A stretch of DNA of 64,000 bases, from NCBI RefSeq assembly GCF_017348835.2, contig NZ_CP071375.1, one strand, 5' to 3'. Source of the stretch: Escherichia coli. GTDB lineage: Bacteria; Pseudomonadota; Gammaproteobacteria; Enterobacterales; Enterobacteriaceae. Shown one piece after another: positions 51,700 through 52,578 of this stretch (within the stretch, counting starts at the first letter, position 1; every line of letters begins with the position of its first letter). Both the position numbers and the translations under genes were made by a program. Under the pieces are notes generated by a model. The model did no database searches and was not told where the DNA came from. It worked only from the letters and a program-made list of their open reading frames with translations.

Positions 51700-52578
51700 A
51701 AGCCTGATAAGACGCGGTCAGCGTCGCATCAGGCAGTCGGCACTGTTGCCGGATGCGGCGTAAACGCCTTATCCGGCCTACGGAGGGTGCGGGAATTTGT
51801 AGGCCTGATAAGACGCGCGAGCGTCGCATCAGGCAGTCGGCACCGTTGCCGGATGCGGCGTAAACGCCTTATCCGGCCTACGGAGGGTGCAGGAATTTGT
51901 AGGCCTGATAAGACGCGCAAGCGTCGCATCAGGCATCTGGCACCGTTGCCGGATGCGGCGTAAACGCCTTATCCGGCCTACGGAGGGTGCGGGAATTTGT
52001 AGGCCTGATAAGACGCGCAAGCGTCGCATCAGGCAGTCGGCACCGTTGCCGGATGCGGCGTAAACGCCTTATCCGGCCTACGGAGGGTGCGGGAATTTGT
52101 AGGCCTGATAAGACGCGCAAGCGTCGCATCAGGCAGTCGGCACCGTTGCCGGATGCGGCGTAAACGCCTTATCCGGCCTACGGAGGGTGCGGGAATTTGT
52201 AGGCCTGATAAGACGCGCAAGCGTCGCATCAGGCAGTCGGCACCGTTGCCGGATGCGGCGTAAACGCCTTATCCGGCCTACGGAGGGTGCGGGAATTTGT
52301 AGGCCTGATAAGACGCGCAAGCGTCGCATCAGGCATCTGGCACCGTTGCCGGATGCGGCGTAAACGCCTTATCCGGCCTACGGAGGGTGCGGGAATTTGT
52401 AGGCCTGATAAGACGCGCGAGCGTCGCATCAGGCATCTGGCACCGTTGCCGGATGCGGCGTAAACGCCTTATCCGGCCTACGGAGGGTGCGGGAATTTGT
52501 AGGCCTGATAAGACGCGCAAGCGTCGCATCAGGCAGTCGGCACTGTTGCCGGATGCGGCGTAAACGCCTTATCCGGCT
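51700..52578. repeat. BIME-2-type tandem array, about 8.8 copies of a 100-bp unit made of two REP palindromic units plus spacers
   Basis: Exact 100-bp periodicity; unit is aggcctgataagacgcgcaagcgtcgcatcaggc + agtcggcaccgtt + gccggatgcggcgtaaacgccttatccggcctac + ggagggtgcgggaatttgt, with point variants between copies. Confidence 0.95.

Follow-up and report, generated by a model that had tools for sequence, protein, structure and literature searches.

What is the long tandem repeat that fills the space between yjdM and yjdN in this Escherichia coli genome, and does its length matter to the two genes that flank it? Across the window (the whole 64-kb stretch of DNA analysed here), Tandem Repeats Finder (TRF) reports a sole long-period array, at 51702-52581, with a period of 100, 8.8 copies, 97% matches, 1% indels and a score of 1647. 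This array is the nine-unit (18-hairpin) allele of the element known in K-12 as REP325, the naRNA1-6 locus. The element has been described before, as has its polymorphism in general, and the peculiarity here lies in the rare nine-unit allele. A preliminary description of the DNA had recognised a BIME array between yjdN (51193-51636) and yjdM (52596-52931), built of a 100-bp unit in about 8.8 copies, and both points are upheld by TRF, by dissection of the units (one of which is 101 nt long) and by the gene neighbours. The identity of the array as REP325/naRNA4 and its published mRNA role had been missed. The reading that we consider likely is that the nine-unit array forms the 3' UTR of yjdM, where it would protect the yjdM mRNA and provide leaky, partly Rho-dependent stops before yjdN, in addition to carrying probable gyrase sites.

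On the plus strand, the 100-bp unit runs from an inverted Z2 REP through a linker of 13 nt to a Y REP, and a spacer of 25 nt follows. The Z2 part is a 32-nt palindrome (GCCTGATAAGACGC-loop-GCGTCGCATCAGGC) of the Z2 type in inverted orientation, the linker l reads AGTCGGCACCGTT, and the Y part is a 30-nt palindrome of the Y type (GCCGGATGCGGCG-loop-CGCCTTATCCGGC) followed by CTAC, with a 17-nt spacer core (GGAGGGTGCGGGAATTT) and GTAG completing the unit. In unit 4, these parts lie at 52003-52034 (Z2), 52035-52047 (linker), 52048-52077 (Y), 52078-52081 (CTAC), 52082-52098 (spacer core) and 52099-52102 (GTAG). Cut at the Z2 anchor, the array falls into one unit of 101 nt, seven of 100 nt and a last core of 77 nt, the periodicity being exact save for a 1-nt loop insertion in unit 1. 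TRF, unit dissection and inverted repeats together describe nine Z2-l-Y cores separated by eight equal-length spacers and assigned to the minus strand, with nine Z2 and nine Y REPs making 18 hairpins in alternating orientation. The nine cores belong to six sequence types in the order A C E F F F E G H; in units 4-6 the identity extends across the full 100 bp.

The same periodicity accounts for the open reading frames that crowd this region, eight of 66 codons on the minus strand together with others of 58 codons on the plus strand, all in 100-nt steps. As 100 is not divisible by three, the frame shifts from copy to copy, and each of these ORFs is the same repeat. The overlapping 66-codon frames had been called phantoms, correctly so: their ATG start falls inside the Z2 palindrome, the identical genome of strain PE164 has no annotated CDS over the array, and a protein-coding role for either set was rejected. 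A CRISPR-like array was likewise rejected, because the "spacers" of this array are identical to each other.

Identity with REP325 can be followed unit by unit. The Rfam model naRNA4 (RF02564, gathering score 59.5) matches the minus strand of the array nine times, at 96.7-111 bits and over 77/77 positions each, and the plus strand at 51-54 bits only. The first unit to be transcribed is unit 9 (52502-52578, minus strand, as are all of the following; 106.8 bits), which is nearest to the yjdM stop and matches naRNA1 in position. It is followed by unit 8 (type G, 52402-52478, 102 bits) and unit 7 (type E, 52302-52378, 104.2 bits), both naRNA4-family Y-l-Z2 cores, and then by three type F units that equal the K-12 naRNA4/naRNA2 core and score 111 bits each: unit 6 (52202-52278, identical to the K-12 units K3 and K5), unit 5 (52102-52178) and unit 4 (52002-52078). 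Next come two further naRNA4-family cores, unit 3 (type E, 51902-51978, 104.2 bits) and unit 2 (type C, 51802-51878, 108.8 bits, followed by the variant spacer b). Unit 1 (51701-51778, 96.7 bits), with a total length of 101 and a Z2 loop 1 nt longer than the others (GGTCA), is transcribed last and lies nearest to the yjdN start.

K-12 MG1655 has 5.8 copies of the same 100-bp unit, also between yjdM and yjdN. REP325 was described by Qian et al. (2015) as six Y-l-Z2 repeats with identical "U" spacers, transcribed from yjdM towards yjdN to give naRNA1-6. The array in the window shares with the K-12 element its place in the yjdM-yjdN spacer, its strand and its 100-bp Y-l-Z2 plus U unit, units 4-6 being the same as naRNA4/naRNA2, and it occupies the orthologous position downstream of the yjdM promoter. 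It differs in having nine units (18 hairpins) where K-12 has six (12 hairpins), in the order of its unit variants, in the 1-nt longer Z2 loop of its first unit and in its terminal Y loop, which is TAAA here but CGAG in K-12.

Among the classes of REP-based elements, the array belongs to BIME-2. Its Y and Z2 REPs alternate in opposite orientations, in units identical to the Y-l-Z2 repeats of Qian et al.; its linkers are short (13 nt, and 17 nt plus the GTAG/CTAC feet), its unit is repeated in 8.8 tandem copies, and it is extragenic at the 3' end of a gene, beginning 18 nt past the yjdM stop. In all of these traits, and in the variation of its copy number between strains, it resembles other BIME-2 arrays such as those at sucC-sucB and tldD-yhdP, although its 18 REPs exceed the 12 of the K-12 allele at yjdM-yjdN. 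BIME-1 elements, in contrast, are single-copy combinations of Z1 and Y with a long L linker that bears an IHF site. The array has in common with BIME-1 and the RIP/RIB elements the inverted pairs of REP palindromes at the 3' ends of transcription units, but its linkers measure 13 and 25 nt and its unit is iterated nine times. The IHF consensus WATCAANNNNTTR has eight matches in the 64-kb window and none between 51637 and 52595. Membership of BIME-1 and an IHF site in the array were both rejected on these grounds, and the IHF binding that the preliminary description had proposed falls with them, IHF sites being a property of the BIME-1 L linker. The inverted REP doublet with GTAG/CTAC feet also recalls the REPINs mobilised by RAYT systems (domesticated IS200-like Y1 transposases), and K-12 REP325 was predicted to be a RAYT-associated REPIN; however, no RAYT gene adjoins the array in the window.

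If REP325 is the locus of naRNA1-6, one interpretation would be that the array is a set of nine genes for nucleoid-associated non-coding RNAs of the naRNA4 family, which together with HU would link DNA cruciforms and compact the chromosome, the amount of naRNA rising with the number of units. All nine units exceed the Rfam gathering score on the transcribed strand and three of them are identical to naRNA4. Moreover, Qian et al. (2015) found that deletion of REP325 decondenses the nucleoid, that naRNA4 supplied from a plasmid rescues this defect and that HU and naRNA4 condense DNA in vitro. However, this role in nucleoid compaction is now disputed. A 2026 study co-authored by an author of the original work found nucleoid volume unchanged on deletion or overexpression of REP325, with no stable HU-naRNA4-cruciform complex and no REP-REP contacts in Hi-C (Harris et al. 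2026 preprint). A single unit is also the commonest state of the locus in a sample of genomes (36/58), about 84% of genomes having 4.8 units or fewer, and the naRNA4 model matches ordinary single BIME pairs in the window as well, so what it detects is the generic BIME-2 unit and not a special gene. Taken together, we regard this explanation of the nine-unit array as very unlikely. The single Y-linker-Z2 pairs matched by RF02564 number three, all on the plus strand: one at 49145-49225 (69.1 bits) in the phnD-phnE spacer within the phn operon, one at 29007-29077 (77.1 bits) between yjcO and gltP, which are convergent, and one at 18402-18473 (63.6 bits) in the intercistronic spacer of acs and yjcH.

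The orientation of the surrounding genes determines how the array is transcribed. The upstream gene is yjdM (phnA; 52596-52931, minus strand, from the ORF list and the PE164 annotation), with its stop codon at 52596-52598, and the downstream gene is yjdN (phnB; 51193-51636, minus strand), whose start codon lies 65 nt past the last REP; further neighbours are phnC (50273-51061, minus strand) and crfC (from 53333, plus strand). Because yjdM, yjdN and phnC share the minus strand, the array does not lie between convergent genes and is transcribed as the 3' UTR of yjdM. The suggestion that it insulates or terminates convergent transcription is not sustained, the three genes being co-directional. 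In the promoter scan, good matches occur solely upstream of yjdM, where the best sigma-70-like site, a consensus match only, is at 52999-53027 on the minus strand (CCGACA-17-TATAAT, 10/12). The same consensus scan found no promoter-like site inside the array, and scans of both strands found no intrinsic-terminator-like site in 51637-52595, where the hairpins lead into C-rich spacers and not into U runs. From the yjdM stop to the first REP there are 18 nt to the base of the stem and 14 nt to its GUAA foot. Liang, Rudd and Deutscher are said to have set out in 2015 the case of REPs lying no more than 15 nt from a stop codon, and REP325 is stated to fall inside this 15-nt limit. The yjdM stop codon itself lies within a predicted 7-bp hairpin (ACUGAUU...GAUCAGU; 52579-52600, minus strand) directly before the first REP, and this flank was found in every E. 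coli allele examined. In some strains an IS1 element is present between yjdM and crfC, near the yjdM promoter region (H99, and Ec-U1 at positions 1993-2690 of its locus L010); such an insertion upstream of yjdM would alter transcription into the REP array.

As RNA, the 77-nt unit (unit 5) is predicted to adopt a two-hairpin fold of -42.8 kcal/mol (z = -4.8), and unit 9 likewise gives two hairpins with the small stop-codon hairpin before them. In the predicted fold of longer stretches, a unit may also pair with a neighbouring unit. The spacer core, the "U" motif of Qian et al., reads AAAUUCCCGCACCCUCC in the RNA (for example at 52082-52098, minus strand), contains nine C and one G, recurs every 100 nt in eight copies and is unpaired in the predicted multi-unit fold.

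What such a transcript does has been studied in the six-unit K-12 allele, from which all functional data on REP325 derive, the key paper being a preprint. Deletion of REP325 in K-12 lowers yjdM RNA and raises yjdN RNA about 8-10-fold, bringing the yjdM/yjdN ratio, about 35 with the element in place, down to about 1, and a yjdM-yjdN plasmid without REP325 yields about 160-fold less yjdM mRNA (Harris et al. 2026 preprint). The stabilisation in K-12 is context-dependent, being seen only with yjdN present. Transcripts of REP325 form a ladder of truncated species, and bicyclomycin approximately doubles read-through with the full 12-hairpin array but not with two or four hairpins, although an in-vitro Rho-binding screen did not recover REP325 (Harris et al. 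2026 preprint). A K-12 cell contains only about 1-2 copies of the endogenous REP325 RNA (Harris et al. 2026 preprint); being so scarce, this RNA may have effects that are small.

These data suggest how the array in the window may work. The RNA of each unit forms a Y hairpin and a Z2 hairpin, and the hairpins would act as successive roadblocks to 3'-to-5' decay, protecting the yjdM mRNA. The same hairpins would serve as leaky, partly Rho-dependent stop points that reduce read-through into yjdN, and on DNA the Y-type REPs are probable sites for gyrase. We infer that the stabilising and attenuating activities described in K-12 operate here too and scale with the number of units, in which case they would probably be stronger at 18 hairpins.

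An alternative places the main role of the array in the DNA, where it would be either a strong cluster of gyrase sites that does not depend on transcription or a topological insulator, its nine Y-type REPs serving as gyrase cleavage sites that part the supercoiling domain of yjdM from that of yjdN-phn. Gyrase cleavage sites are significantly over-represented in BIME-2, prefer Y over Z2 and rise when transcription is blocked (Sutormin et al.); REPs have been described as topological insulators; and the array bears nine Y REPs. However, cleavage sites were found in a subset of BIME-2 only, with sucC-sucB and tldD-yhdP named, and yjdM, yjdN and phnA go unmentioned in the supplementary files examined from that work. 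Gyrase binding, which had been claimed for arrays of this kind, holds as a property of the BIME-2 Y-REP family only (Sutormin et al.). Furthermore, the transcript-level effects of REP325 are large enough to explain the phenotype, and a role in gyrase binding or insulation is compatible with mRNA protection and attenuation without excluding them. As the principal function of the array, the DNA-level role appears unlikely.

Is the nine-unit form real, and how common is it? The 2-kb region of the window is 100% identical to that of E. coli PE164 (from a pig in China) and 99.8% identical to that of F2_81 (from a pig in Australia), and both have nine units. The sole difference is unit 2, which has type C with spacer b here but type G with spacer a in F2_81, as if it had been converted there to the unit-8 type. 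The nine-unit array is not an assembly artefact, because a second complete genome from another continent has the same nine-unit form; the artefact explanation was rejected on the strength of these two genomes, which come from different continents and differ in one unit.

The size of the array was measured across genomes with flank-only queries, whole-array BLAST coverage being unreliable for size as overlapping pieces merge. In a sample of 58 genomes, picked evenly down the ranking of such a query, a copy number of 0.8 was the commonest state (36/58), followed by 5.8 (8/58) and 4.8 (6/58, one of them also with IS1 upstream of yjdM); 1.8 copies were found in 3/58 and 3.8 in 2/58, and the values of 2.8, 6.8 and 8.8 occurred once each, the last in PE164, which is identical to the query. 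The expectation that copy number would vary between strains is upheld: the alleles range from 0.8 to 8.8 units, and that of K-12 has 5.8. For a collection-wide count, flank pairs of rising length were used as queries, the pieces being joined if the gap between them was at most half the query length plus 500. A maximum gap of 560 (up to 4.8 copies) joined 4,536 genomes, 630 (up to 5.8) joined 5,283, 730 (up to 6.8) joined 5,365, 830 (up to 7.8) joined 5,368 and 930 (up to 8.8) joined 5,369, counts that are good to within a few genomes. The locus is present in about 5,417 complete E. coli genomes, about 48 of which never join. About 84% of some 5,400 genomes have at most 4.8 copies, about 14% have 5.8 (including K-12 strains and derivatives such as MC4100 and ER2683), about 1.5% have 6.8, and about four genomes have 7.8-8.8; differences in the counts of places suggest at most about two records with a gap of 931-1,496 nt. 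One other lineage-mate shares the nine-unit form, and among about 5,400 genomes only very few equal or surpass it in length.

The alleles can be read as strings of unit types: J K F M F N in K-12, J P F M M F N in HH194M, J K F F N in Ec-U1 and J K N in MLI104K1. Such strings, in a series spanning one to nine units, are accounted for by whole units being gained or lost in register. The length of the array would shift by whole 100-bp steps through in-register slippage or unequal recombination between near-identical units, probably with occasional conversion between units of the array. Off-register variants are found in other strains, namely a unit truncated to 68 nt, a duplication of 7 nt and a Z2-l-Y-U-Y arrangement.

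Outside E. coli, E. albertii, Citrobacter, Pseudocitrobacter, Leclercia, Kluyvera, Enterobacter and Cedecea retain the yjdM-yjdN synteny. Their spacers measure about 40-200 nt and hold, immediately behind the yjdM stop, 0-2 hairpins of the REP type proper to each genus; the spacer in Pseudocitrobacter contains one complete Y-l-Z2 unit. Among the species representatives sampled, tandem amplification at this locus is a feature of E. coli. The E. coli genome SCPM-O-B-8794 (the GTDB representative; positions 1129-1376 of locus L018) differs at this locus: its yjdM-yjdN spacer is divergent, is 248 nt long and contains two REP pairs, between which the spacer CAATTCCAGTACCAACCCACA is C-rich on the RNA strand and is not the U motif. 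A contig assigned to an "uncultured Clostridiales" metagenome-assembled genome (USCO01000113.1, locus L017, 2501-2917) encodes a YjdM 100% identical to that of E. coli and stops after the first 84 nt of the REP array; the contig probably entered that genome as contamination from E. coli, with the assembly broken at the repeat.

Variation of this kind would also be expected of a selfish or neutral minisatellite without function, in which REP doublets were amplified by RAYT or slippage, the spacer is not essential and length has no phenotypic meaning. The range of 0.8 to 8.8 copies and the off-register forms listed above agree with this, as do the short spacers with 0-2 own-type hairpins in the other Enterobacteriaceae that keep the synteny. 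TnpA-REP, moreover, cleaves and recombines BIMEs in vitro, and the copy number of BIME-2 is known to vary by strain. However, deletion of the K-12 allele causes a reciprocal change in yjdM and yjdN RNA and a change in growth (Harris et al. 2026 preprint), and a hairpin lies right after the yjdM stop in nearly every genus examined. The stems are also invariant whereas loops and linkers vary: among 48 full 100-nt units from 16 strains, nine columns are variable, two in the Z2 loop, five in linker l, two in spacer U and none in the stems, a count in which the first 13 columns are fixed by the anchor and from which some units of other lengths, which do have stem changes, stand apart. A neutral origin and a present regulatory effect are not mutually exclusive, and complete absence of function seems extremely unlikely.

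Within the favoured reading of the array as a protective and attenuating 3' UTR, a more specific proposal can be made, although only tentatively: the number of units may be a heritable, stepwise dial on the yjdM:yjdN ratio, with the C-rich spacers, kept single-stranded by the hairpins on either side, jointly forming a distributed Rho-loading site. The spacer core is a plausible candidate Rho-loading sequence, judging from its composition, its unpaired state in the predicted folds and its eightfold recurrence. There are eight C-rich spacers here, five in K-12 and none in the common one-unit allele, and distributed loading by the spacers would explain why Rho dependence in K-12 needs the full array. 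Were such a dial to exist, the nine-unit allele would nearly silence read-through into yjdN and confer the strongest stabilisation of yjdM mRNA, and long alleles would be rare because too much yjdM lowers fitness.

Several other features of the window were recorded. In the phn operon, phnE (48347-49126, minus strand) is an intact 780-nt gene in the PE164 annotation and a pseudogene in K-12 MG1655; phosphonate uptake and the C-P lyase operon are therefore probably functional here. The gene for the acid phosphatase AphA (aphA, about 2512-3225) is annotated in PE164 as a pseudogene with an internal stop. At the Rfam gathering level, matches were found to sraL (11024-11164, minus strand, 153 bits) between ghxP and soxR, to SECIS_2 (31546-31600, minus strand, 80.7 bits), which is the selenocysteine insertion element inside fdhF, and to STnc630 (58248-58413, plus strand, 181.8 bits).

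In practical terms, an array of this kind breaks short-read assemblies and yields phantom ORFs, and annotation with the Rfam naRNA4 model would place nine "genes" in it. REP325 is the current model REP element, and its function is debated between HU/naRNA4-mediated compaction and local control through the 3' UTR. The yjdM-yjdN locus provides a natural allelic series of one to nine units in otherwise orthologous contexts, of which the window has the rare longest form. Beyond its value within this series, the array is ordinary E. coli repeat biology; as a natural dose series, however, the locus could test how hairpin number relates to mRNA stabilisation, to Rho-dependent attenuation and to any effect on the nucleoid.
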